DNA of 64,000 bases from Paecilomyces variotii (Eukaryota). Positions 931-16,433 of the stretch are shown here, piece by piece. The position numbers and the translations under genes are program-made. The stretch lies in NCBI GenBank assembly GCA_004022145.1, contig RCNU01000006.1, one strand, 5' to 3'. Every line of letters starts with the position of its first letter. Position 1 is the stretch's first letter. Below the pieces are notes generated by a model, which did no database searches, had not been told where the DNA came from, and saw only the letters and a list, made by a program, of their open reading frames with translations.

Positions 931-1304
931 TCTACAGAGCTCAATTCCCTTACTATCGTACTGCTACGTATTTATAAAGGAGGGCTTAATTCCACGTGCC
1001 TTTATCCGTCCCCCTAATACAACTAGTGCTCGTACCTGCAGGCTCCCCTGCCAATTGAAATAAATATAGCGAATAACATAATGCCACCTAATCAGGTTCG
1101 GCTGCATGGTAGCGTTGTTAGTCTGATATATATGTGGGGATAAACTAACCTATCGCAGCTGTTATTGAATCAATATGGATGTAGATTTTGACTAGATGGG
1201 TTAAAGGCCCTAGATGAAGATCTTTGGCTATCTCAGGTCACAGCTTATGCGAACCCATTACATCTTCTTGGAAAGATCATTTACGAAGGATCTGGTGCTG
1301 TAGG
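931..1304 (+). repeat. Direct repeat copy A: degenerate duplicate of the catalase 3' end and downstream flank
   Basis: Aligns by eye with 5962-6416 (shared TCTACAGAGC.., CTGCAGGCTCCCCTGCCAATT, AATATGGATGTAGATTT, CCCATTACATCTTCTTG, GAAGGATC.GGTGCTGTAGG) with several indels. Confidence 0.9.
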
Positions 1305-1657
1305 AGGCACCACAGATAATACTACAGGAGGTCGTCGTGGAAATGAATCGAGTAGAGAGCCAAATTATCAGGACATTGATTCGCTGATTTGCTGTTTCCA
1401 AGTCCTATGATAGAGGAGTTATCGGCACTAGAATGAGGGGTATATAGTGAGCGCGCAACATATCTGCACTGTAGGCTCTTGGGTGTTGATAGAATGCTTG
1501 ATTCTCTAGGATCGAGCTTGAAGCTCCAAGCCATCCAAACTATCTTTCAAAGCATCTCACTATGCTCTACAGGGGTATGAAGTAGTTCTCAAATGGGGTC
1601 CTCAACATCATACCTATCAAATCCTCCCAAGGTAAGATTCGAGGCATCATGTTCTTC

Positions 1658-2949
1658 TCACTCCGCAGGCATGTCTCTTTCAAGTCCCTCCAAAACATGA
1701 CCCACAAGGACCTTCACTGCCTCGTCCGCTTTCTGTTCAAGTTCGTCGGGAACTTTGTGAACCGTGATACCTGGAGGGGCTATGACAGGAATCTCGTCCG
1801 GGGTACTACTAGTCTTTAAAATGCATTCCATTAGTACACATATGATGAGCCCATATTGACGAACATACCGGGAGGCTACTGGCATAACGTTGGAATACGC
1901 CGAGATAAGAGTCTTTGTGAGGCTCCGCACCGACCTTGTCGACCGCATCTTGGATTAATTCTTCGAACTGTCCAAGTTCATCAGTTCCATCCATGGAATT
2001 CTGTAAGTTGAGACATACCTCATTGATATCCGCGTTTTCAAGAGCATTCTTAGTCGCATTCTTTGCAAGATCATTCAATTTGCAGAGCTTGATGAGTTCC
2101 TCCTTCTCTTGATCGGTCAGCTCGACACCATCTTGGTGAAGAAGCTCACCGGCAGAGGTGTAGAAGTCGTCGAGCACTTCTCCGAATTCGTGGCTGGGGA
2201 GAAATTGGAAGTCCTTCGTATTTTGTGCCTCGAAGCTATCCGCTGCTTTCTTTTCACCAGATCAACTTAGCTGACTATTAATATACGGAGATACAAAGCA
2301 AGATTCCACCTACGTCTGGGGTACCAAATGCCCTCTTCAGCTTCAGAAGCACGAGACTTCCGCGTAGGGAGCTAAATTTCCATCTTTTCTCTAGGCCGTG
2401 ATACCCGTAATGTGCGCTTTCATATACCGTCTTGGCAAATACGTAACAGTTCCTGGTCCGCAAGTCGTAGCCACGTAGCCTATCAGTGACTTCTTTCAGC
2501 AAATTGGCTAAGCTGACGACATTTAGATTGTCGTCGTCAAAGGTCAGCGACAACAGAGGGAGAGGAAGGAGAGGAAGAATGCGACCAGACGATGACGAAG
2601 ACGAAGAAGAACTTCCGAACGAGCTTCCAGCCGAGGTTCCCGAAAGATGGCTCGAAGAAGATGGACTCAAGGGGCTAGTGCCGTATGACCATCGACCGAT
2701 AATGACCTGGTCCTGCTTTTGCTGACGCTCCGCCAGCACACGAGTGCGGCCCTCTGAACTGGAACCAGTATCTTCCAAGATGATTTGCAGATACTCATGA
2801 GCCAGTGCGGAGTTCAGGTTCTTAACGTGTGTGATTCGTCGGACGAAGCAGCGAGCATACTTGGATGCATTTTGGCTCAAATCGGAGTACCACTCGCCTG
2901 TGGTTATGACTTTCTGTTCGGAGGTGAAGACTAGTGGCTGGAAACCCAT
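1658..2949 (-). CDS. Uncharacterised ~390 aa protein with putative permuted papain-like (PPPDE/LRAT-type) N-terminal domain and acidic helical C-terminus
   Basis: Three exons 2949-2314, 2249-1869 and 1813-1658, joined in frame by GT..AG introns with branch points. Motifs AHEYL and GYDLRTRNCYVFA; Ser-rich insert. Confidence 0.7.
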
Positions 2950-3566
2950 ATTGATGAGAAATGAACAGTATCAATATACAATCTTGATATCTGTTGGTTT
3001 GCTCAAGGGAGAGAAGGAAAGAGAGAAATGAAGGGAGATGAAGCTACTATATATGCATTAAGTATACAGGATTACAAGGAATGTTGATTTTACTTGTAAA
3101 GAGATGATGATTCTATTACATTCCAAAATATAATGGAATCATAACTCACTATCCTAGTCAGCTGTGGTAAGATTATAGATTAATTGTCTGCATAGTACTT
3201 ATGCAAGGCTAGTAAAGTGGTGTGTAGATGAGGGGCAGTTATGTGGTATGGCAATACAGATAACCATTTCATACAAACCAGATAAATCAGAATCATTGAA
3301 TAGGATTAGAACGAAAGGATAACAGGACACATGTATATATATGAGACTTACTCGATAGATTGATGTATAAGTATACATATTTTACCGGAAGCAAGAGAAA
3401 TCTTTTCTCATAGATCAAGGCCATCCGTATATCTCTATCCATATATCTCTGAAAAAAAAAAAGGGGGAGGGGGGCTACGTATCCTGCAGCATAGCAAGAA
3501 ATCAATACTTCGGAGATGAATTCCCTTTCGAGTTTCCCTTGTTACTATCATGGATAATGAACAACC

Positions 3567-4032
3567 TGTAGATTCCACGTAAGCAACGAAGCAACACAGC
3601 CTGCGCGTTGCTCGGGTATCACTGCATACTGATATAGATAGTATGGATGGTGAAGAACCTATTCTTTCGGCACTGGCGATCCGATACTTAGTAGGCGATC
3701 TCCCTCACCTTCCGCTTTGGGCTAGTTTTGCGTATAGAGAACCTCTTGAGCTCAATTCCCCCACAATCAAGCATCTTCCACAGGCTCCAAGAGATAATAA
3801 ACTGCCTTTCGGAGCTCCTAGGCTCCTAGTAGCAGATCTCTGCTTATTTGGCCAGCTAGTTGAGTCATCTAGTAGATAACTAGTTATAACTAGCCTCTCC
3901 GGTCACGTAGCTAGAATCAGGAATTCAAGCTTCTTATTAGCAAGCCCAAGACAGCTTGTAGATCCCATGTAAGCAACCAAGCAACATAGCCTGCGCGTTG
4001 CTAAGGCTTTGTTGTTCAGGTATCACTGCATA
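3567..4032 (+). repeat. Two copies (3567-3628, 3957-4032) of a ~60-75 bp motif in the divergent intergenic region
   Basis: TGTAGAT(T/C)CCA(C/T)GTAAGCAAC(G/C)AAGCAACA(C/T)AGCCTGCGCGTTGCT...GGTATCACTGCATA occurs twice and contains the inverted pair AGCAAC..GTTGCT. Confidence 0.9.
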
Positions 4033-4304
4033 ACAATAGAGAGATTGCCCTGATTTCTATACCAAATATGGTCAACCAGAAGTGATGAACAAAAGAAGCG
4101 AAAACAAAAAGAAAAAAGAAAGAAAAGAGAACAGAGAACAGAGAGAAAACGGCTGGTGACTGTTGCAAAGCCGGGCAGCTCGACTTCGGAGCTGGCGCGT
4201 TCTCCGAATCTAGCTGATTTTTAGCATTGTACTCAAGGTATTTAATGCGTTCATTGGGCTTCATTTGGGGACTTTCACGTTCAAGCAGCTGTCGAGAATC
4301 CACC

Positions 4305-5888
4305 ATGGCTTCAGAAGTCGCAACGGCGGCGTGTATGCCGATGCCTTCTACTCATTCACTCGAGATGCCTTCCAGTAATCTAAGACTGAGCAACTCGGGC
4401 TCAGGGGAACTGTCGTTGGCTGTCAATATGGAATGGTTCTGGGATGTTGGCATGTTGCACGTTCGCTTTCTCAATCACGACGACCGCTGCCAGCAGATGG
4501 TGAAAGACGCGGCGAAGATCTGGGAGAAGTACGCGAACATTCGGTTCGTCTTTGACGACTCCTCGGAGGCAGATATTCGCATCCTGTTTGACACGAAATT
4601 GAAGGGTGGCAGCTCGCTGGTTGGAAAGCACAAACAGAAGGAAACGCCGTTAGACAGACCGACTATGATTCTGGGTTCCGGGCTTAGCGACCGGGAGTTC
4701 AAGAGAACGGCCCTTCATGAACTGGGTCATGCATTGGGTTGCGTCCATGAACACTGCAGTCCAGTAGCGAGCATTGACTGGGACGAAGAAAAGGTCGTCT
4801 CTTGGTACGAGGAGAATAGTGGATGTTCCCAGGACAGGGAGTCGCTTCAGAAATGGATTCGGGCCAATATCACCCGACAATACAACTCCAGCTCTTCTTT
4901 CCAAACCACTGAGTTCGACGAAAGGTCGATCATGGTCTACCAGATCCTTCCCGGCTGGGCGAAGAAGGGCTATTGCGTCGACTGGCCAGACAGTCTTTCC
5001 GAGGCAGACAAGATGCTGATCCGGAGGATCTACCGTTCTATCTTGCCGACAACCGAAAGTGGCCAGTATAGCACCCAAGACAGTAGGCTATGGTACCAGC
5101 CGAAGGGGCAAAATGTCATGGAAATCCAGCTCAACAGTACACGCGAAAATGAACCAAATTTCACCGTAGGGATCACACATTTCGATCTGGAGCGTGAAAA
5201 GAACATGCATCTCCAGGCCTATGCGGACGACTTCCAACGGGACAGCTTCAAACTCCATCTGGATTCGATATCCGGCACCACCCAGTACTCAGCCGCCGCC
5301 ACTTGCCTCGTGAGCGAACGCCATGATTTCACGTTCCAATCTGGCACATACGCGACCAGGCAGAAAGATAAAACGTATCCCGATGGCAAGGAGTATACAG
5401 CCCCCATCAACTTCGAAAGAGCCTTTCGGACGACACCAGGCCTGGTTGTATGGCTCAAGGCCTTCCAGTTCGACAAGGGAGGGCGTCTCAACGTTCATGC
5501 GTATGCAGGGAATTCGGACAGGAACGGATTCGATCTGCATATTGATAGTTGGGATGATGCCCGCCTCGTGAGCGCCGAGGCGTCGTGGATTGCCTATGAA
5601 ACCGACCCACCCGGCATCCACTCCGGAGTCCTTACGTTCCAAAATTTCAGAGAGAACGAACAGCAGTATGGGGATACAAAGCGTCATCAAATCAAAGAGA
5701 AAAAACTGGGCGAGTGGCAGCTCAGAACGGTGTATGCTGCTATTTCCAAATTCGATTTTGAACCAGATAAGATACGGCTGTCCCTCAAAGTCAATCCAAG
5801 GGTCTCTGCTTTTGAAATCGACGCAATGACTTGGGCGGACAGCAAATGTCATGGAGCAGAGGTGTCCTACCTGGCGGTTTGTGCTTGA
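4305..5888 (+). CDS. Metzincin (astacin/M12A-like) zinc metalloprotease fused to three H-type-lectin-like repeats
   Basis: Intronless ORF, ATG at 4305 in CACCATGG context. HELGHALGCVHEH zinc motif and SIMVY Met-turn. Three C-terminal beta repeats (P...V.+..FD....+.+..........F.+...W.D....A..S++A). No signal peptide seen. Confidence 0.85.
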   Translation: MASEVATAACMPMPSTHSLEMPSSNLRLSNSGSGELSLAVNMEWFWDVGMLHVRFLNHDDRCQQMVKDAAKIWEKYANIRFVFDDSSEADIRILFDTKLKGGSSLVGKHKQKETPLDRPTMILGSGLSDREFKRTALHELGHALGCVHEHCSPVASIDWDEEKVVSWYEENSGCSQDRESLQKWIRANITRQYNSSSSFQTTEFDERSIMVYQILPGWAKKGYCVDWPDSLSEADKMLIRRIYRSILPTTESGQYSTQDSRLWYQPKGQNVMEIQLNSTRENEPNFTVGITHFDLEREKNMHLQAYADDFQRDSFKLHLDSISGTTQYSAAATCLVSERHDFTFQSGTYATRQKDKTYPDGKEYTAPINFERAFRTTPGLVVWLKAFQFDKGGRLNVHAYAGNSDRNGFDLHIDSWDDARLVSAEASWIAYETDPPGIHSGVLTFQNFRENEQQYGDTKRHQIKEKKLGEWQLRTVYAAISKFDFEPDKIRLSLKVNPRVSAFEIDAMTWADSKCHGAEVSYLAVCA

Positions 5889-5961
5889 TTTGCGTGGGGT
5901 TGGCCAGCATCGCTCTGTTGACGGAGGGGTGAGGTCGGCGAGATGCGATAGCGAGGCGGGG

Positions 5962-6416
5962 TCTACAGAGCTTAATTCCCTTACTATTGTACTGCTGCGT
6001 ATTTATAAAAGCATGCTTAATTCTATTAACTGCCTAACTTATGGGGTTTAAATACATTCTGGTCCCCTTTTATATGCCTTCATCCGTTCCCCCCAATACT
6101 ACCAGTGCTCATATCTGCAGGCTCCCCTGCCAATTAAAAACAATACAGCGAATAATATTATGCCATCTAATCAAGTTCTGCTGTATGGAGGTGTTGTTAG
6201 TCTGATATATCTGTAGGGATAATCTGACCTGTCGCAGCTGTGACTGATAATATGGATGTAGATTTCGACTAGATAGGTCGAAGGCCCTAGAGATTGTAAA
6301 ATATCGAACAGGATCATGAAGATCTTTGAATATCTTAGGGTCCGGTATATGCAAACCCATTACATCTTCTTGAAAAGATCCTCTACCACACCGGTTGAAG
6401 GATCCGGTGCTGTAGG
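5962..6416 (+). repeat. Direct repeat copy B: last ~19 codons of the catalase plus its downstream flank
   Basis: Homologous to 931-1304 and overlaps the catalase stop codon at 6362-6360. Confidence 0.9.
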
Positions 6417-8672
6417 TGGAACGTAACTGACTTCGTGAGGTTGCTCTGCTCCTGCTTCGACACCCACGGTGGTCTGGGCCAGTGTCTTATTAGCGAGAAT
6501 TCTCTTCGTCAAAGCCTTTCTGATCTCATCAGCGAGATCGCTATTAATCAGCTTGAAGATCTCTGTCCCACAGGCGTCAGCAGCAGTAATATGGGCTCCG
6601 TCGGATTTGCACTAGGGTGTTTACTCACCTAGCGATCTCTGTTGTGTCGGTATTATACGGGCCGTAGAGAGAGAAGCCACAACATTCGTCACGAAGTTTT
6701 TCCGCAATTTTGGAGTCATGCTCATGTAGTGATCATTGCATTGTGTGTAGTCCGTGGTGTCCATAGCACTCTTAAAGCGTTCAAGGTTGCCAGACCAGTT
6801 GAGGAAACTTATATTATGGTTGTCCGGGGCGACCTTGTTATCATCGCTTCGAATGTAATTGCGCGCGTTGGCGTAGTTGGTCATGTTGTACGCTCCATCT
6901 CGCCTTGTGGGGCTGTAGACATATGAGCATGGCCGGTTTGTGGGCAGCTGGTCGTTGTTGACGCCGAGACGGTATCGTTGTGTATCTCCGTAGGCGAACA
7001 GGCGAATCTGAAGTACTAACCTGGAAGTTAGCGCCGTCGTATGAATCAACAGGTTCTGACGTACGAGGATCAGGAGAGATATCCCAGCCAGGCACGATAT
7101 TTGCCGGATTGAAGGCGGCCTGTTCTACTTGTGTGAAGAAATTCTGAGGACATTCAGTCAAGGTTATCTTGCCGAATTCTTTCCATGGAAACACATTCTC
7201 TGGGAGGATCTTGGTGGCATCAAAGATGTTCACAGGGCTCATGCTGGGGTCTTTGACTATTTGTGCCATGACCTTCCAGGCTGGGTACTTGTTGTTCACT
7301 GGATCCGATCGCGCTTTCGTAATTTCGGCATATAAAACACGAGCCAGCCAGTCTGGGTCCTTACCAGCCATGGTGGTCGCAGCGCCCAGGTCGAAATAGT
7401 CATTGTCAGGATCGATGGCAGGGTCAGGAACTAGTTTGATCCTGACCAGGGTGTGCTCCCAACTGTGGTCTTGTTTCTAAATTATTTCGCGCATTGTCAG
7501 TATCAAGGAGCGAGCCATGTCACAGAAGATCAAGTTGCAGCAACCTTTTTGGTAAATGTATAACAATGTACACTAGATGCCTGCATTCGAGAGTACGACT
7601 TTGGAGTACCCTCATCACTGAAAATTCTCATCAATGCGTTATACCCCTCTGGGTGGTTGTTGAAGTAGCTTCCCAACATTAGCAAAATATCAATATACAC
7701 TCGAAGAGATTCCCTTACTCCCAAAACTAGGTGCTTGTTAGTCAACCCAAATATGTAAAAGACTGCAGATAGAAGGCCTTACCATGTTGGAGTCCGGCAG
7801 GTTGCTGGCGGGATCACGCTTCGTCGCGTGGACAAGAGAAGGGAACTTGGCAGGGTCCCTGATCAAGAAGATTTCCTTGAATTGCATGTTAGCTAGAAGG
7901 CAAACCCTTTGGCATCCGACGGGACTTACAGGGTTGAGAAACAGCCAGTCAAGGTTCCCTTCCTCAGTGTAAAACTTAAAGGCCGCGCCCTTGGTATCTC
8001 GCACAGTGTCCGGGTAGCCTCTCTCCCCAGCAACAGTCGAAAATCGCGCAAAAAGCCGTGTCTTTTTGCCAGTAGCATTAAGGAACTTAGCATCAGTGTA
8101 ATCGCTTACCGTGAAGTCCTTGTTCGTAACTTCGAACACGCCGAAGGCGCCTACTCCCTTTGCATGCACGTATCTGTTGCAACACAGTTTCTGTGTCAGA
8201 TACTTGTCTTGTCCATTGAGGGACTGCTAGAGCGATAGTAGCGTCTCACCTTTCCGGAATCCGCTCACGGGTAACATGAGAGATGGTATCAATAACATTG
8301 AGATCTTGGATCAGCTGGGAGGCCATTCGATGTTTGCCGTCCAGCTTGTCGACTCTTTCCGTCAACAATGGATCCTCCAACGGACAACCTAAAATGGTCA
8401 AACAATCAATCAAATGCTACTGAGGTAGCTGACGACAAGTTAGACACTTACCATTTGACATGGTAAAAAAGCCCTTTGAGATGGGCGCATCAGGAATCTT
8501 CCCAGCATCAGGACAGAAATCTATGAAAGTCTATAAGCCATTGACTACCACCTTGGGGCTGGGTGATCGTTACCCTGGGCCGAGGTGGGATTGGGCCTTG
8601 CTAGTGACTCCTTGAGGTAGAGTTAGTAATGAATGATATTTGTCTGTAGGATATTCATACTTTATGCTCCAT
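6360..8672 (-). CDS. Small-subunit monofunctional heme catalase-like protein (~575 aa, 11 exons)
   Basis: Exons 8672-8661, 8610-8574, 8520-8452, 8388-8250, 8173-7930, 7875-7783, 7726-7719, 7668-7545, 7476-7065, 7015-6629 and 6562-6360 give an open 1728-nt frame. Motifs FTMSNGCP, RERIPERYVHAKG (distal His), RFSTVAGERG, VEQAAFNP and RLFAYGDTQRYRLG (proximal Tyr). Confidence 0.9.
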
Positions 8673-9497
8673 TGGGACGATGAGATCAGTGATCGCAGTA
8701 GGTTTAAAGAAAGAAGTAGGTTATGATGAGGTACGATTGCTTCTCAAGCATCTCTAGGGTCTATTTATGAGTTGACAGGACGTAGCATCACGAACCTCTC
8801 ACATCATTTCGAAATAGGGTCAGTGTGGTATTGGATCATGGAATGTTAAGGCTGGTTGAATGCAGAACGAGCATGTTACACAAATGACTCCTTGACTTAG
8901 AAATTCTCCGCCAGGAAAACGAAGAATGCACATCTGCAGCAATTCCAAATTATGTTCATCCCATTTCTAATCAGAGCATTCATGCCGTTTGCAAACCGAT
9001 GACCTCAATTATCACTCATGAATCATATGTCCTGATTCATCTTGACCTCAAGACTACCATCCTGACGTCTCTGCAAGGTTACAGTTCCATGCTTGGGCAT
9101 GGTCAATCTGCGGAAACGCTGGCGACATTCAGGGAATTTGTTAATTTGCTTCCTATCACGCTGTCAGTTGAAGGATTTTCTACAGCTCAGACGAATTGCA
9201 CGAAGCAGAGGGGAGGTCTCTTCCATGGTCCAACAACACGCAGCGACACGACAGCTTCCTGATCGACAACAGTGTAGGCATTGGAGAATTGTGCAATCAT
9301 GATCAGTTCTCAAGCCTTACAGTCTGTTTTCAGACGAGGTATCACTCCATACATGCACCTTAGCAATCTTGTGAACGACAGCAGACGCCCATTGTTGTGG
9401 AACGAAGGCTATATCTGCTCCAAGGGATCACTAAGATAATGCATTCGTTACAGGCATATCTTATCGTTTCGAGCACCGTCCACATTGACAAGTCACC
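8673..9497. promoter_or_regulatory. Putative bidirectional promoter shared by catalase and glucose oxidase
   Basis: 825 bp between divergent start codons (8672 on minus, 9498 on plus). Inferred from geometry only. Confidence 0.6.
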
Positions 9498-11417
9498 ATG
9501 AAGCGCTTTCCCCTACTTTGGCTGATCCATGTGGCCGGAGCACTTTCCGAGCCCTTTCAAGCCCCTTTTCAAGTCCCTCCAAGCAGCACAACCCACAGCA
9601 CAATTGCGGCGACCGCCACAGGTGTCATCAGTGACCCTTCGAAAGTTGCAAATCAGACATACGACTATGTGATTGCCGGAGGAGGTCTCACGGGTCTCAC
9701 CATCGCTGCTAAGCTCCTTGACCACCCGGATAAGTTCAATGTTCTCGTGATTGAGAGCGGATTCTATGGATCTGAATATGGTCCCATCATCGACGACCTG
9801 AACACATATGGTCAGATATTTGGCAGCAGCGTTGACCATGCCTATGAGACTAACCCCCAGATTCACAAGCGGGTCGAGATTGTCCGGTCGGGCAATGGCC
9901 TCGGAGGTTCGACTCTTATCAACGGCGGAACTTGGACTCGTCCACACGAAGACCAGGTCAATTCCTGGGAAAATGTCTTTGGAAACCATGGCTGGAATTG
10001 GAAAGGTCTGAAAAAGTACATGGACGAGATCGAAAAGCCTCGAGATCCAATGAAGGACTCAACTGTAACCCCAGGCCATCTTCACTATTATGAACCGAGC
10101 TGCCATAACTCTGATCTTGACAAGGGTAAGGTAGAGGTTGGAGCGCGAGACCGAAAGACCAAATGGTCGCCACTGATCAAGGCCCTAATGCACACAGCCC
10201 ACGAAACGACAGGTGCACCCTACCAACTAGACCTCTGTTGCGGTCGCCCGCACGGCGTGTCCATGTTCCTCAACACCCTGACCACAAAGCAGATTCGCAC
10301 GGATGCTGAGCGGTCGTGGCTGGAGCCCGTGCTCAGGAACAAGGACTTAGAAGCCCGAATTACTGTTCTGACTGGTCAGCTTGTGGGAAGAGTCAATCTC
10401 GAGCAGGATGGCTCGAAGTACAGAGCAAAGGGAGTCGAATTCGGCACCCACAGCAAGGACGGCTGGAGGTTCAACGTCACGGCGAACCAGGAAGTTCTCC
10501 TTGCTGCTGGATCAGCTATCTCCCCTCTCATTCTGCAATGGTCTGGCATTGGCCCTGCCAGTGTACTGGAGCAGCCTAAAGTCAATATCTCACAAAAGAT
10601 CGACCTCCCTGTTGGCCTCAATCTGCAAGATCAAACCACAACCTCCGTCGTCTCCCGAACCACTCCAGACGGCAATGGGCAGGGCCAAGCAGCGTACTTC
10701 GCAACCTTCGCTGAGGTATTCGGGGAGCATTCGCATTATTTCGAGGCGATGCTGAACGACAACGACACACTGCACAAATGGGCCGCCGATACCGTCGCCG
10801 GAGGCGGTTTCCACGACCAGTCTGCTCTCTTCCTCCAATACGTCAATTACCAGAATTGGCTGCTTGGCAAGAACAACGTTTCCTATGGGGAACTTTTCAT
10901 GGATACCGACAACCATATCCACTTTGACCTATGGAACTTGCTGCCCTTTGCACGGGGCTACGTCAAGATCCTCGACAACGACCCCTACCTGCGTAGCTTC
11001 GAGTATAACCCCCGCTATTTCGAAAACGAGCTCGACCTCTACGGACAGGCTGCGATGTCGAAGCTCGCGCGTAATCTGACTCGCTCCGGAGATATGGGAA
11101 GCTACTACGGCGAAGAGACGTTGCCGGGGGCGCTGTTGTCTGAGAACGCGACTTTGGAAGACTGGGCACTCTATGTGAAGCAGAACTTCCGCGCCAACTA
11201 TCACGGTATTGGTACATGCAGCATGATGAAGAAGGAACTTGGAGGTGTCGTCGATGAAACTGCTAAGGTTTATGGAGTCGACAACCTGCGCGTGGTTGAT
11301 GGCTCTATTCCCCCTACCCAGGTGTCCTCGCACGTGATGACGGTATTCTATGGTATGGCCTCGAAGATTAGTGATGAAATTGTGAAGGCCTATGAGAAGA
11401 AGAAGAAGAATAAGTAA
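9498..11417 (+). CDS. gox: Secreted glucose oxidase (GMC oxidoreductase, AA3_2)
   Basis: Intronless 639 aa ORF with an N-terminal hydrophobic signal. DYVIAGGGLTGL FAD motif, YGQIFGSSVDHAYET and RSGNGLGGSTLINGGTWTRPH closely match Aspergillus/Penicillium glucose oxidase. Catalytic His pair in FRANYHGIGT and QVSSHVMTVFY. Confidence 0.93.
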   Translation: MKRFPLLWLIHVAGALSEPFQAPFQVPPSSTTHSTIAATATGVISDPSKVANQTYDYVIAGGGLTGLTIAAKLLDHPDKFNVLVIESGFYGSEYGPIIDDLNTYGQIFGSSVDHAYETNPQIHKRVEIVRSGNGLGGSTLINGGTWTRPHEDQVNSWENVFGNHGWNWKGLKKYMDEIEKPRDPMKDSTVTPGHLHYYEPSCHNSDLDKGKVEVGARDRKTKWSPLIKALMHTAHETTGAPYQLDLCCGRPHGVSMFLNTLTTKQIRTDAERSWLEPVLRNKDLEARITVLTGQLVGRVNLEQDGSKYRAKGVEFGTHSKDGWRFNVTANQEVLLAAGSAISPLILQWSGIGPASVLEQPKVNISQKIDLPVGLNLQDQTTTSVVSRTTPDGNGQGQAAYFATFAEVFGEHSHYFEAMLNDNDTLHKWAADTVAGGGFHDQSALFLQYVNYQNWLLGKNNVSYGELFMDTDNHIHFDLWNLLPFARGYVKILDNDPYLRSFEYNPRYFENELDLYGQAAMSKLARNLTRSGDMGSYYGEETLPGALLSENATLEDWALYVKQNFRANYHGIGTCSMMKKELGGVVDETAKVYGVDNLRVVDGSIPPTQVSSHVMTVFYGMASKISDEIVKAYEKKKKNK

Positions 11418-11904
11418 GCGCATAGAGCAGTATTTCGCGGAATTTGCTAACATCAGGTTACAGAAAACCACCTCACAGCCAACCGCTGGCGTGGGCTGAC
11501 TTGAGATAAATTCAAACGGCAAAATGGCGGATGGTACTAGCCATAGCCATTATTAGTTAACTGATTGGTTATGCGTCATTTATTTTCCTCGTCTATTGCA
11601 GTCATCCTTGTAGGGGTTGAGACATTATGAGATTGGGACTCAAATTCTTACCACATTTCCAGACTGGTAAAGTAGATTTTGGTGCCCCTAGGGGCTCCAG
11701 TATGTATTTAACTAGTCGACTCAATCAAGCATCTTCAGCATCTCTGAGAGCAGACACTTATCGCTTTCTTACCGCAGACCAACGTTCTCGAAGTCCTCAG
11801 AGACTATGCCTAGTACGGCTGCTATTGGTTACTGCCCCCAAGAAAAGGGATACAGAGAAGGACTAACTGTAATATGGATAACGTGTTTGTACAAGCCTGG
11901 AGTT

Positions 11905-12010
11905 ACACCGTAAACGGTCGCAGAGATCGTTTAGCATCGTCTCAGTTATCATTCTTGGTCGACCGCTATAAGTATAGGGGGGCTCAAACATCTCCGAATA
12001 GTCGCAGGTG
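11905..12010 (-). mobile_element. Degenerate Tc1/IS630-like transposase fragment
   Basis: Translation MFEPPYTYSGRPRMITETMLNDLCDRL resembles the GRPR..IT..ML..LC..L linker of fungal Tc1/mariner transposases. No DDE domain visible. Confidence 0.45.
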
Positions 12011-12219
12011 GGAGACGCGTAAGTAGCCGCCCTGCCACCGAGACTCTCTGATTGCAATAAACCAGCTTTCCCAAGGACCGCTCCTTGTCGCAGGATAAAC
12101 ATAATATTAGCTACCTTCATTCACACAGCTGCAAATGATAAAGGTACCTATCAATAGCAGGACCAGAATAAATGGCGTCATTAGAAATTTGCTTTCCATG
12201 TTTACTAGTAAACTGTTAG

Positions 12220-12572
12220 AACATGTAGTATAGGTGGTATTTTAAATTTAAAGATGTTATAAATTTCACAGAATTAAAATATTTGAATTTCAAGAAAAAA
12301 AAAAGTATCTGAAACTTTGAAATTTTACCTATTAATAGTATTTACCTATTAGTTATTTTACCCAAAAAATGAATAAATGAAAAATCTTAACTACATAGTT
12401 ACTAACTAATTCTTACTAGTTTATGTCCCCACTTAATTTCCTTATCTACAGCGCGCCCCATATATAGTCTGTGCATTTTAAATTTCGCAATGAAAAAAAA
12501 AGGGTAGAATTCCAGTATTTCATAAAAGAAAAAGAAAAAATCTAAATTTCACTAGTTACCCTTAACATGTAG
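12220..12572. mobile_element. AT-rich insertion bounded by a 9-bp direct repeat (possible Mutator-like non-autonomous relic)
   Basis: AACATGTAG at 12220-12228 and 12564-12572 brackets a very AT-rich tract. Terminal inverted similarity is only loose. Confidence 0.4.
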
Positions 12573-13101
12573 ACTCTGAAGCTTTTCCCGATATAGAAGG
12601 ATGTAAGAGATTCCATCCATTTAGCTTAATCCTAAGCTTTTCGTCGCAGAACGCTTGTTTTTAGGCTGATTTTAAACCATAAAGAACCCGTTTTTCTCGA
12701 ACATAAAAGCAATGGCTTACAATTAGTCTCCGTTCTTCTATACTAGTTAGTAACTGTCTTCTCTATACGGCCGCAGCGGTCAAAGTTACCTATAATGTTG
12801 TCCAAAGGCTAATAGCAATAGAAGAAGTGCAATCCTCAACCTTCTATCGCTTATTTGGAGGGATGCATCAGTAAAAGACTAAGCAGCAAAGTCATGGTTG
12901 CTATCGGTAGCTCCTTGCGCCACAGATGGAAGATCATCTTCCTCCAGTGGGGCGTTAATGTTGTAACTACTATTGAGAAATCTTTCAATAATCCGATATC
13001 GCGCTAATTTACATCTCAAATGTCCTTGTATGAATGAACACCATTCTTTCGCACAATTACACGGATCAGCTCACTACCAAGCAGTAGCCCATAATGCATA
13101 C

Positions 13102-13911
13102 TTATATTCTCCATGAGATGAAATACCGAAGTTTTGCCAGGCAACCGTTGCCTGTAGTATATGATGAGCAAGACTGGATGCTCTCGGCATGTTGGAAAAG
13201 GGACGAAAGTTTGGAAAAACCCCTTTCGCAACCAGGACACATGTATAACCACCCTCCGTTCTCAAGGTCGCGGCGATACTTTCTGCTCTGATAGCATGCT
13301 CGCGCTAGATCGTCGATCTCGCCCTCTATAGTACCGGAAATGCAAGATCCAGATTCCAAATGTATCAGCATTCCTGAGAAAGTCTTGAATACCTGCTCGC
13401 AACCGTAGCGGTCATGACCGTAACATTCTAAGTCCCGAGGCGTGTGGCGTTGTTTATGCTGTCAGAGTATATCAGTATTTGTCTATCAAATCTCGGTTGA
13501 CCAAAGTACCATTTCCAGATTATTTCTGTTTTGAAAGAATTGACCACAGTCGACGCAGAGGTTATGCTGTTCTACATTATGGTCTCGTAGTTCGTCGCTG
13601 GAGCAGTGGTATATTCCACAAGGTCGACAAAGGTGGTGATCGCTCACGCGATGCGTCTGAAGTTGATCATACGATATGAAATCAAGCGGTACAGGACATT
13701 TCCAGCAAACATTATGAGCCGCTGAGTCTCGAATATGAGCAGCTTTTGCTGATGGTGTAGAGAAATATCGACGACACCTTGCGCACCATTCGTGTCGACT
13801 GGAGGATTTGCGGTGACAGTCAAGGGCATATTGCGAGTTGAAGAACCTCTGACAAGGGGGGCACCAATAATAATCGTCATCGCCATAGCTAGAATCAGAC
13901 CATAGGCTCAT
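13102..13911 (-). CDS. Multi-C2H2 zinc-finger protein (~252 aa)
   Basis: Exons 13911-13510 and 13458-13102 (GTACTT..CTGACAG intron). Repeated CxxC-x3-F-x8-H-x3-5-H units, ending in HLESGSC and YMCPGCERGFSKLSSLFQHAES. Confidence 0.85.
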
Positions 13912-14038
13912 GTTGAACAAGGCTGGGGTGTTGGGCCTTTTTACGGACAGTCAGGAGATAAAAGAAGCTATTTATCTATTCCGAGAGTTAGGAACTGAGC
14001 TCCACTGTTTAGGCTCCACACGTGAATTTCATTGCCTA

Positions 14039-14294
14039 CAGTAAATCCTATTGGTACCTATAACAAACCTAGTCCACCCCACCTAGTCTATCCAATGGGA
14101 TTCGGTAAAATATTGGTTTTAACATGGTATAGCCAATATTTTACTCTCCTTATGCCTATACAAAATTTATTATAGCAAAGTATGTCAATCTAATTAGCTG
14201 ATTTTATGCGCTATACTATTTTAGATTAATAAATTCTCGTTATAATAAATAAATATTCGGGTCTAGTTTAATTTGTTATAGCCAGGAATTACTG
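14039..14294. mobile_element. Tc1/mariner-pogo-type MITE (~256 bp) with TA target-site duplication
   Basis: Left end TA|CAGTAAATCCT..CTATAACAAA; right end reverse-complemented TA|CAGTAATTCCTGGCTATAACAAA. AT-rich interior with the hairpin GTAAAATATTGG..CCAATATTTTAC (14105-14144). Confidence 0.75.
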
Positions 14295-14780
14295 TAATAG
14301 ATTATATAGTATAAATTATTAAAACAAGGGTAGCTTAACTATAACCCCAGTTGAGTTATGTCAGATCCCGCGGCTGCGTTCCGCTGCTGTATTCCCTATA
14401 CAAACCGGATAGTTAGCAGCTGCAACGGGAAGCTACCTAGATTGACCTGCATGGAATCAATAAAGACGGGAGTGGAACCATGGAACAGTTTAATTAGATG
14501 TTCAGCTCAGCTCAGAACAGCCGAGGCATTGGGATAGAGTCGAGGAGCATAAATAAGTAGCTGATATCTAGATTCCGGTGTCAATTGGTTCTTCAAGCAA
14601 TCCAGAGATCATTCCCTTTTCATATAAAAAAAAAAAAATCTTGCTTCCGTGATCCTAGATCCTCACAAGTTAAGCTCGAGAATTCATGAGTTCATTCGCA
14701 AATCTTAAAACCATATCCTTGCTCTCGTAGGATCTGGAAAGATGAATGATGGAACGCTTGATTCGATGTATATATATACT

Positions 14781-14823: not shown

Positions 14824-16433
14824 CTACCACAGAATAGACCGCGTCTCAGAATACCAGTTTCCATCAACCCCATCCGGCTTCGATAGCAGTAGAAATCGAA
14901 CACCATTACCAGTCGCCTCTTCAGGAATAAGTACTTCGTAAACACGGCACGTACTCGCTGGTAAACCCCGCATTTCAACCGGAAGCGATAATTGCTTCTC
15001 TTCTTCCATCACCATAACAAACTCCGCAACCTTCGCATATAATATTCCATCCCACATTCCTTCTCGTCTGTGGTAGCTGGAAATTAAATTAATCGCTTTT
15101 CTCCGCAATATGGGCTCGCGGCATTTGAGCGCCGTGTAATACAGAGGTGATATGATTCCCATCTCCCCACAGAAGATACCGCAGGAGTCGTTAGATTCTT
15201 TCTTCTGATGATTGGTCGTTTCATCGTTTATGAACGTGGTGGCGATGGAGATGATCTCTTCGAAGTCAGAAATGTGGTTGTCGAATACCATCTCGTCCGG
15301 TGATAGGCATGTCTTCAGCCATATTCGCGCGACGAGGTATTGCACTTTCAATATAAGAGGTCCTCGAGAGTCAGATCGTTTGATGCGTTTACTCCTCGTC
15401 AGCCTTTCAAATTGACGCGACCAATTGTCTAGTGCGGTTGTGATGTGGGTTTGTTCTCCTAGGAGTTCCGTTGTCGTCAGACTGCAGTCTTGTCCGCTCT
15501 TCGTAAGACGAATGAATTTCAATGCTCTCTCTGTCAGTGAATCTAACAATACTCTTGCTTCTGAAGTTGTTGAAAATGAAGCTCTGCAGGAGGAGGAATC
15601 CTGGTTTCCTTGTGGAGTATTGAGCGTCATCAGCGGGCGACCAAAGAGCGACTTCTGGATGTTCAAGCGGACGAACAATTCAACCAGTTCTTTATCCACT
15701 GCATCCAAGATACCTCTCCTCTTCAAGTCAGTTATTATCTTTAGCCCCGCTTCGACATGATTGAGTGCTTGGGAAGTTTCCTCGCATGATTTCCAGGAAC
15801 ATGAATAAACAGCATGTAATAAGTGTTGGTTCCACTCTTCCTCCAGTTGGTGATGAGGAATGGGTGATCAAGTGGTGGATGGCCTTGTTGTATTGCTCCA
15901 GTACGAATTTCTCATTTCGCTGCGTTTTCGAGACAGTAGACTGCTGTACAGAGGAAGCAGCAAAGATACGTTGCTCATGAGTGGCACTCACGGCAATGAT
16001 GGCGTGTCTTACAGCTGGCTCCCAAAAGCTCAGCCGAGGCAGCACGCGGCACCAGAATTCTGACGCAAAGAACCCTGCTATAGCCTGGGAGGTCTGGGTG
16101 CAGAAGAGTTCTGCATATTGGCGTTCCTCCCTTGTGCCCGGACGGAGAACCAGACGGCTGTCAGGACTGATACGGGGAGCTGGAGTGTGGTATGTTGATC
16201 TAGGCTTGCCGCTCTTGCTCTGCGTAGGACGGCATTCGTCGTTGTAGCCATCACACGTTCGCTTTGAGCTCCTACATCGACGGCACGCGGGTTTCTCTTC
16301 GTCACATTTAACACGTCGAATCCTACGGATATTGTCAGCTATCTCGCATGAATTGTGAACGATTATCTAACTTGCAAGTGATACACCCTGTCTTTACTTT
16401 GGGCATAAAAGCCCGTTTTTTAGTACTATTCAT
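14824..16433 (-). pseudogene. Zn(II)2Cys6 transcription factor with an internal frameshift (pseudogene or assembly error)
   Basis: ATG 16433 and one intron give KTGCITCKIRRVKCDEEKPACRRCRSSKRTCDGY. The frame breaks near 15771 (EIMRGNF / QALNHVEAGLKII) with no intron signals. C-terminal PLYYTALKCREPILRRKAI..RREGMWDG is typical of this regulator class. Confidence 0.75.

Follow-up and report, generated by a model that had tools for sequence, protein, structure and literature searches.

Glucose oxidase (GOx) is of major industrial importance and is known to serve fungi in antagonism. The usual explanation for how a producer protects itself while leaving its own peroxide intact is that unlinked catalases are induced along with the GOx. 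Fungal gene clusters with a self-protection gene link the gene for a harmful product to a neutralising gene, and are characterized by a patchy distribution and signs of transfer.

The closest described system is that of A. niger, in which H2O2 jointly induces GOx, catalase and lactonase (PMC6165874). There, goxC has a 1,221-bp intergenic region in common with its partner gene, the lactonase, whereas for catR no closer link than the same chromosome is reported, and its product is secreted (PMC6165874). The GOx enzymes form a clade of AA3_2 GMC oxidoreductases found mainly in Eurotiales (PMC6509819); the accessible portion of that source describes no sub-clade within it, and the word "catalase" is absent from its main text. 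Among catalases, the distal Asn is listed as a conserved catalytic residue in the available text of a review (PMC9687031).

A different arrangement is found in a 64,000-nucleotide stretch of Paecilomyces variotii DNA (the window), where a GOx gene and a small-subunit catalase gene diverge from a short spacer. The reading favoured here, with some reserve, is that they form a two-gene cluster, conserved in Eurotiales moulds, for making peroxide and protecting against it (make-and-protect). The pair hints at a peroxide producer supplied with its own safeguard and draws attention to a little-studied GOx paralogue clade; as a linked pair kept at 49-59% identity, it also names a candidate self-protection gene. 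It is transcribed in food-fermentation communities and could influence which bacteria and yeasts survive there.

Structure and transcription of the divergent pair

The pair is organized as follows.

6360..8672, minus strand: catalase gene, small-subunit (clade 3 type), 575 aa, 11 exons, from gene model and RNA joints
8672-8661, 8610-8574, 8520-8452, 8388-8250, 8173-7930, 7875-7783, minus strand: catalase exons 1-6
7726-7719 (8-nt micro-exon), 7668-7545, 7476-7065, 7015-6629, 6562-6360, minus strand: catalase exons 7-11
8673..9497, no strand: divergent intergenic spacer, candidate shared promoter, 825 bp
9498..11413, plus strand: GOx exon 1 (AA3/GMC), hydrophobic N-terminus, catalytic His569 and His612
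11414..11463, plus strand: GOx 3′ intron, 50 nt, GT..AG, joint 11413/11464 in X17 and X11 RNA contigs
11464..11509, plus strand: GOx exon 2 up to the stop codon, from an RNA joint, giving a 653-aa product

The first-pass annotation had described an intact catalase of 11 exons on the minus strand from 8672, and exactly this number is recovered. Each of the 10 introns has GT..AG ends, and splicing them out gives a product that agrees with the database protein P0121 at 575/575 residues. RNA contigs of run X11 carry joints for all 10 introns, including both that flank the micro-exon at 7719-7726, and those of X17 do so as well (nine in one joint table, the tenth in another). The product contains the Pfam domains PF00199 (428 bits) and PF06628, and an Atlas look-up returned the label "catalase" and nothing more.

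The GOx gene begins at the ATG at 9498 on the plus strand, as had been proposed. Its proposed end at 11417 was wrong, the intron at 11414-11463 having been overlooked, and moves to 11509. The spliced protein matches P0255 at 653/653 residues (both P0255 and P0121 are labelled Paecilomyces variotii), and one contig with a loose poly(A) end places an mRNA end near 11747. Its domains PF00732 and PF05199 (GMC N and C, with the FAD-binding motif) score above cut-off, and among solved structures the sequence lies nearer to GOx than to glucose dehydrogenases (about 700 versus about 280 bits). Of the A. niger GOx positions, 16 were checked and all are identical, including both catalytic His and the glucose-binding residues. 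O2-dependent glucose oxidation is the predicted activity. The earlier description of the enzyme as secreted holds in so far as a hydrophobic N-terminus and seven N-glycosylation sequons make secretion probable.

The spacer (8673-9497) measures 825 bp, the length first reported. A pattern search located CCAAT boxes at 8834 and 9284, a PacC-like site at 8910 and a CRE-like site at 9063, and found no AP-1 consensus in the spacer; these candidate sites are too short to count. One spliced X11 contig spans the entire spacer, a span that does not in itself establish one common transcript. Runs X17 and X11 each contain spliced contigs of both genes; these contigs carry no levels or conditions. The two genes may share their regulation.

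Under the make-and-protect reading, the secreted GOx would convert extracellular glucose into gluconolactone and H2O2, thereby acidifying the surroundings, withdrawing sugar and poisoning competitors. The divergent catalase, kept in the cytosol, would clear whatever H2O2 enters the producer by diffusion and leave the peroxide outside unquenched, and a single signal acting through the shared spacer would turn on both genes. GOx and catalase would have gone through duplication, loss and probably transfer as a unit, with antagonism as the presumed purpose of the pair.

Location and active site of the catalase

On inspection, the N-terminus of the catalase is not hydrophobic and holds no signal peptide. 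A PTS1-like C-terminal tripeptide occurs in none of the 21 members of the linked catalase clade, the P. variotii protein included. Judged from its termini, the protein looks cytosolic. This location and the missing distal Asn described below were both overlooked in the first-pass annotation.

A secreted GOx could also belong to a nutritional or metabolic module and not to a weapon. Glucose would then be turned into gluconate for carbon hoarding, lower pH or mineral mobilisation, and the catalase would only dispose of a by-product and return oxygen. The A. niger GoxC/LctA/CatR system is of this kind and couples the same activities (PMC6165874), and near-identical sequences with a habitat label come from food, fermentation and grain samples; antagonism is only a putative role here. 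However, the known solution for oxygen recycling and GOx protection is a secreted catalase such as CatR (PMC6165874), whereas the P. variotii catalase lacks a signal peptide, and a lactonase is absent from the 26 proteins of the window that were scanned. A purely metabolic role is regarded as unlikely.

In the active site, the distal residues His89 and Ser131 and the proximal residues Arg384 and Tyr388 are kept, and all four are present in 21/21 members of the linked clade; the channel Val and Asp are likewise kept in the residue alignment. The distal catalytic Asn site is occupied by Leu165, at a point where the alignment is ungapped and, in the structure model, inside an unbroken predicted strand (158-166, pLDDT >90). 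Across the linked clade this position is Leu in 17/21 members, Phe in 4/21 and Asn in 0/21, and Leu or Phe is found there in 61 of 111 aligned catalases. The protein is, by alignment, a member of a widespread fungal subtype without the textbook distal Asn. The literature searched (few subscription papers, no supplements) contained no account of the chemistry of this subtype. Moving Asn166 into the catalytic position by a register shift is disfavoured by the ungapped alignment and by the unbroken strand of the model.

With Leu or Phe at the distal Asn position in every clade member, efficient catalatic activity is not assured. The gene product is best described as a catalase-superfamily protein with putative typical catalase activity; the make-and-protect reading presumes both this activity and the cytosolic location.

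The same substitution would suit an oxidase-peroxidase couple or a sensor, in which the Asn-less heme protein is a poor catalase that consumes or senses the H2O2 made by GOx, for instance to oxidise an organic substrate or reduce hydroperoxides. The standing of Asn as a catalytic residue in the review cited above (PMC9687031, available text) and the fixation of the change throughout the clade lend weight to such a role. It would nevertheless have to accommodate the retention of all the other distal, channel and proximal residues, as well as a fold that is that of ordinary small-subunit catalases (model pLDDT 86; the Foldseek matches are catalases). The substitution also predates the pairing, because it is common to sister groups in which no pairing was found, and GOx and catalase are apparently placed in different compartments. 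This possibility is more doubtful still.

Linkage, descent and mobility

Adjacency was read off accession series, which give gene order and not strand. A search for GOx-catalase adjacency in other fungi, proposed with the original annotation, found the two genes linked in all nine named species in which both gene types were found. Accessions are consecutive in eight: P. variotii, P. lecythidis, A. homomorphus, A. carlsbadensis (with two separate pairs), A. wentii (three assemblies), A. spinulosporus, A. cavernicola and A. californicus. In the ninth, P. cf. griseofulvum (three assemblies), one accession lies between GOx and catalase. Within P. variotii, 10 of the 11 listed KAJ-series catalase accessions have a listed GOx neighbour. 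One GOx match and one catalase match each lie on a contig of 12,401 bp.

GOx of this clade also occurs without a linked-clade catalase among the matches listed in 18 named species: six of section Fumigati, five of the A. niger group, P. flavigenum, P. nalgiovense, A. alliaceus, A. nomiae, A. falconensis, A. fruticulosus and A. steynii. For A. niger's own member of the paired GOx clade (one record is labelled GoxB), no partner catalase is among the matches listed. Conversely, 12 named species have the catalase and no clade GOx among the matches listed, these being clustered lists and not proof of absence. As far as the accessions indicate, pairing is not obligatory; GOx without a partner catalase among the matches of 18 species weakens the reading of the catalase as an obligatory antidote. 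P. variotii itself possesses further catalases, P0155 at least. A metagenome profile search with a 36-sequence GOx alignment returned four loci, all of the canonical type and none of this GOx clade; in the DNA covered, no catalase match accompanies any of the four, three of which are on contigs of <9 kb.

Phylogenetic analysis comprised large trees, built as quick trees, and careful trees on 25 GOx and 24 catalase sequences. Both genes fall into dedicated clades. The paired catalases all fall in one clade (support 100/100) on a long branch of its own, separate from CatR and excluding a second P. variotii catalase of this type. The paired GOx all lie outside the GoxC-type clade, in a clade separate from A. 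niger GoxC. Trees had been suggested as a check for congruent, patchy or horizontal distribution. GOx and catalase distances are correlated (Mantel rho 0.85, p about 0.001, 11 pairs; rho 0.81, p 0.007 for the 8 pairs left after sister pairs were dropped), and both trees are non-vertical. Five of eight splits are common to the two trees, and each conflict involves one split with support <=63. Plain vertical descent is rejected by both trees in AU tests, which used taxonomic groups named after the quick trees had been inspected and which do not distinguish transfer from an old paralogy followed by loss. The non-vertical trees fit past transfer.

Recurrence of the adjacency in nine species, co-divergence and splicing in the same RNA samples together point to a two-gene unit and not a chance neighbourhood, as the first-pass annotation had supposed.

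The surroundings of the pair had been described as transposon relics and RIP-like scars, a picture that the flanks do not bear out. No transposon Pfam family was detected in 30 frames of five flanking stretches (stops read as X; one weak DUF hit), and no 1-kb window across the whole 64 kb passes both RIP thresholds. At 300 bp, weak RIP-like patches appear at 1-450, 11700-12600 and 14100-14400, and similar flags occur inside coding exons. The 26 window proteins scanned include no transposase or recombinase family, and within the window no captain recombinase, transposase or terminal repeats that would signal a Starship or transposon were found. No 5S rRNA piece lies in 1-24000, the sole Rfam matches being two sub-threshold ones on a simple repeat, and no long inverted repeat brackets the pair. 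Variable DNA is found to the left of the catalase:

931..1310, minus strand: relic duplicate of the 3′ end of the catalase with its downstream region, 76-89% identity to 5962-6422
1311..5961, no strand: strain-variable block left of the catalase, skipped by one X15 contig

The relic has a 10-bp gap in its coding part, bounds the variable block and lies outside the working pair. Within the block (~5 kb) lie a spliced minus-strand gene that starts at 2949 and encodes 373 aa and, in the plus-strand ORF 4218-5888, an astacin/H-type-lectin gene; Atlas look-ups for its genes returned unnamed fungal clusters only. Contigs of X21, taken by guess to be RNA from spliced joints in neighbouring genes, cover the astacin and bHLH genes and neither pair gene; this would be compatible with the pair being silent as a whole, but missing contig cover is not counted as evidence. 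A comparison of presence and absence across strains had been proposed; the pair is found in many P. variotii assemblies, and the variable piece is the left block.

This variable neighbour, the non-vertical trees and the many species in which each gene has no detected partner would be compatible with historical hitchhiking, in which the two genes were once joint cargo of a mobile element and are still adjacent without mutual need. Yet the most divergent pairs remain adjacent at an identity of only 59% (GOx) and 49% (catalase), which implies long maintenance, and the two activities are chemically complementary. Mere hitchhiking is distinctly improbable. That the cassette, earlier called potentially mobile, is mobile today, bounded by transposon ends or carried in a Starship at this locus, can claim the strain-dependent left flank and is otherwise hardly credible, given the flanks, proteins and repeats described above, the presence of the pair across many assemblies of P. 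variotii and also in its sister species P. lecythidis, and an empty site in the X15 contig where the neighbouring block is missing and the pair is not part of the skipped segment.

The make-and-protect reading can be extended, tentatively and only as a joint claim, to a horizontally exchanged peroxide weapon-and-immunity cassette, in which a dedicated GOx paralogue stands head to head with an equally dedicated, cytosolic Asn-less catalase. Such a unit may have moved between Thermoascaceae, Aspergillaceae and Trichocomaceae, with at least the catalase reaching Hypocreales (Ilyonectria, Clonostachys), and the modified active site of the catalase might suit a sustained internal H2O2 load. A cassette of this kind would be new in moulds; the literature searched (few subscription papers, no supplements) describes no GOx-catalase adjacency.

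Comparison with known systems

The P. variotii pair resembles A. niger goxC/lctA/catR in bringing GOx and catalase activities together and in its identical GOx active-site residues. Unlike in A. niger, the neighbour of GOx is a small-subunit catalase without a signal peptide and not a lactonase, and the GOx itself belongs to a paralogous clade separate from GoxC. Membership in the AA3_2 GOx clade is reflected in scores of 690-709 bits to 1cf3 and 1gpe versus 270-280 bits for the next group, whereas an identity of 54-59% to canonical-type enzymes, a length of 653 aa and a 3′ intron set it apart from canonical GOx. The catalase finds its best sequence and fold matches in the clade 3 yeast peroxisomal enzymes (6rjn, 2xq1, 1a4e), with the heme-binding and most active-site residues kept; it differs from these by Leu in place of the distal Asn, the lack of PTS1, N- and C-terminal extensions and its long-branch clade. 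With respect to self-protection clusters, the harmful product is H2O2 made by one enzyme and not a secondary metabolite, and the link is not obligatory. The likeness to such clusters lies in a producer gene linked to a neutraliser, a patchy distribution and signs of transfer.

The glucose oxidase and catalase genes

The two-gene cluster of a glucose oxidase (GOx) and a catalase in Paecilomyces variotii is real and conserved. It is built of two well-known enzyme families, each contributing a dedicated paralogue, and combines an atypical catalase with a non-vertical history. The cluster is apparently undescribed so far: full-text searches, with most subscription papers and supplementary cluster catalogues outside their range, returned no account of GOx-catalase adjacency, and such catalogues could already contain the pair.

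9498–11509, plus strand: GOx gene
8672–6360, minus strand: catalase gene of 11 exons

From the ATG at 9498, the reading frame and a Pfam domain scan give a GMC oxidoreductase. Among solved structures glucose oxidases match best (690-709 bits, the next group reaching 270-280), and the protein agrees with A. niger GOx at 16/16 positions checked, among them the two catalytic histidines and the disulphide. All of this agrees with the GOx gene called by the first-pass annotation. The end it assigned, 11417, is the stop of the unspliced frame and has to be moved: RNA contigs of sequencing runs X17 and X11 lack a 50-nt intron (11414–11463), so the product has 653 aa and ends at 11509. It carries seven sequons and a hydrophobic N-terminus. 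GOx and catalase each match proteins labelled Paecilomyces variotii at 99-100% identity.

The 11-exon catalase, likewise proposed at first pass, is borne out by identity to database protein P0121 at 575/575 residues and by the presence of 10/10 introns as joints in RNA contigs, including both that flank an 8-nt micro-exon. Its predicted fold is of the small-subunit catalase type (pLDDT 86; structure-similarity search), and His89, Ser131, Val88, Asp145, Arg384 and Tyr388 are kept in the residue alignment. The distal Asn, counted among the conserved catalytic residues of catalases in a review (PMC9687031), corresponds to Leu165 when the protein is aligned with yeast catalases, which needs no gap there. 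Leu or Phe occupies this site in 21/21 catalases of the clade holding the paired genes and in 40/90 non-clade sequences aligned (61/111 small-subunit catalases overall), so the Asn-less enzyme reads as an old subtype and not as local decay. Leu/Phe-bearing members of this alignment include many filamentous-ascomycete proteins labelled catA. Full-text searches, with most subscription papers outside, found no account of the subtype. A non-hydrophobic N-terminus and the absence of a C-terminal PTS1-like tripeptide suggest a cytosolic protein.

The two genes diverge from a spacer of 825 bp, the length first reported. Spliced transcripts of both genes occur in each of X17 and X11, one of these samples being a food-fermentation metatranscriptome; the contigs record presence, not levels or co-induction. 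In a single X17 contig, a loose end of oligo-dT type lies before 9122, inside the spacer, which suggests that polyadenylated minus-strand RNA may end near there.

Linkage and history of the pair

Adjacency in relatives, which the first-pass annotation had proposed to examine, is kept in 9/9 named species with both clade GOx and clade catalase among the matches listed, as judged by accession order, which gives order and not strand; divergent orientation is read in P. variotii only. Among the P. variotii accessions listed, a GOx accession adjoins 10 of the 11 catalases of the KAJ series. Consecutive accessions occur in P. lecythidis, A. homomorphus, A. carlsbadensis (two pairs), A. wentii (3 assemblies), A. 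spinulosporus, A. cavernicola and A. californicus, and one annotated gene separates catalase and GOx in 3/3 assemblies of P. cf. griseofulvum. The P. variotii, A. wentii and P. cf. griseofulvum pairs were picked by species alone; several others were chosen because the contigs of the two genes matched in length. Against an obligatory link speak 18 named species with clade GOx and no clade catalase among the matches listed, and 12 with the converse. These counts do not prove absence, since 120 of 250 GOx matches were surveyed, some proteins are concealed within clusters, and annotation can easily go wrong for a gene with ten introns.

A single clade on a long branch (100/100) holds the paired catalases and does not include the second P. 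variotii catalase of the same type. The paired GOx do not belong to the clade that unites A. niger GoxC, P. expansum GOX2 and the Talaromyces enzymes, in a tree flagged for a long-branch join between the outgroup and the A. cavernicola/A. californicus branch. Across 11 pairs the distances of the two genes co-vary (Mantel rho 0.85, p about 0.001), as they do across 8 pairs (0.81, p 0.007), and 5/8 splits are common, with no conflict strongly supported on both sides.

Species history does not explain these linked trees. Paecilomyces is nested within Aspergillus and Penicillium for both genes. Among groups named for AU testing only after quick trees had been seen, a clade restricted to Aspergillaceae is rejected both for catalase (p-AU 1.9e-59) and for GOx (p-AU 1e-5), six GOx of subgenus Nidulantes species fail to group (p-AU 6e-4), and a Eurotiales-only catalase clade is rejected (p-AU 7.6e-6), with Hypocreales catalases nested beside A. 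spinulosporus (100/99). The latter (P0136 and P0311-P0314, from three Ilyonectria taxa and Clonostachys rhizophaga; I. destructans is not among the sequences in the tree) are candidates for between-class transfer; no GOx partner for them turned up among the matches listed. Judged from sequence trees, plain vertical descent is rejected for both genes, and horizontal transfer or old paralogy with loss would fit alike.

Surroundings of the pair

A setting among transposon relics and RIP scars, as first described, finds little backing: a Pfam scan of 30 flank reading frames, read through stops, found no transposon families, and 0 of the 1-kb windows across the 64 kb passed both RIP thresholds. No 5S rRNA piece was found within 1-24000.

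931-1310: relic duplicate of the 3' end of the catalase gene and of the stretch downstream of it (repeat partner 5962-6422)
2949 down to ~1660, minus strand: spliced 373-aa gene, three introns in X11 contigs
4218-5888, plus strand: astacin-type metalloprotease fused to H-type lectin domains (Pfam)
13102-13950, minus strand: C2H2 zinc-finger gene between GOx and a bHLH gene (Pfam)
14824-16366, minus strand: Zn2Cys6 transcription factor gene, also between GOx and the bHLH gene (Pfam)

The direct repeat (~380 bp, 76-89% identical) brackets a 4.6-kb block holding a gene of unknown family and the astacin/H-lectin gene, the latter covered by X11 and X21 contigs. No Pfam family was found for the 373-aa gene, whose first exon resembles clusters with Basidiomycota as commonest phylum (scores 0.91-0.94). 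A 52-nt repeat occurs twice within the block (3561-3612 and 3951-4002). A contig of X15, a run labelled RNA yet unspliced, joins 978 to 6029, with many first-copy letters beside the catalase; the block is thus missing from that strain, and catalase and GOx are present. Further left, beyond ~890, the contig continues for ~1.6 kb that does not resemble the window. Strains differ in whether they carry the block, and what varies is the neighbouring DNA rather than the pair itself; the variation probably arose by recombination between diverged catalase 3' ends.

On the other side, the C2H2 or Zn2Cys6 gene could regulate the pair, and ordinary genes (bHLH, septin-like, Hsp90) lie to their right. At a dispersed short repeat (14395-14530), contigs of two runs exit the window at 14414 with nearly identical sequence.

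Function and comparison with known systems

Oxidation of glucose by GOx yields gluconolactone and H2O2. The likeliest reading of the pair is a make-and-protect unit, in which secreted GOx would form both products outside the cell, H2O2 entering the producer would be removed by the probably cytosolic catalase, itself switched on from the same spacer as GOx, and external peroxide would be spared and left acting on competitors. A weapon-and-antidote function is plausible. Among rival readings, the pair could be a gluconate module with a purely metabolic role; an oxidase-peroxidase couple or sensor, an idea prompted by the absence of the distal Asn; or a case of hitchhiking. A currently mobile cassette is least supported: the first-pass annotation considered the pair potentially mobile, and the X15 strain lacks only the neighbouring block, leaving current mobility at this site unsupported.

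The proposed make-and-protect arrangement differs from the A. niger GOx system, in which, according to PMC6165874, goxC adjoins a lactonase gene and secreted CatR clears H2O2 extracellularly. In P. variotii the neighbour of GOx is instead a catalase, and this catalase is predicted to be cytosolic, whereas CatR acts outside the cell.
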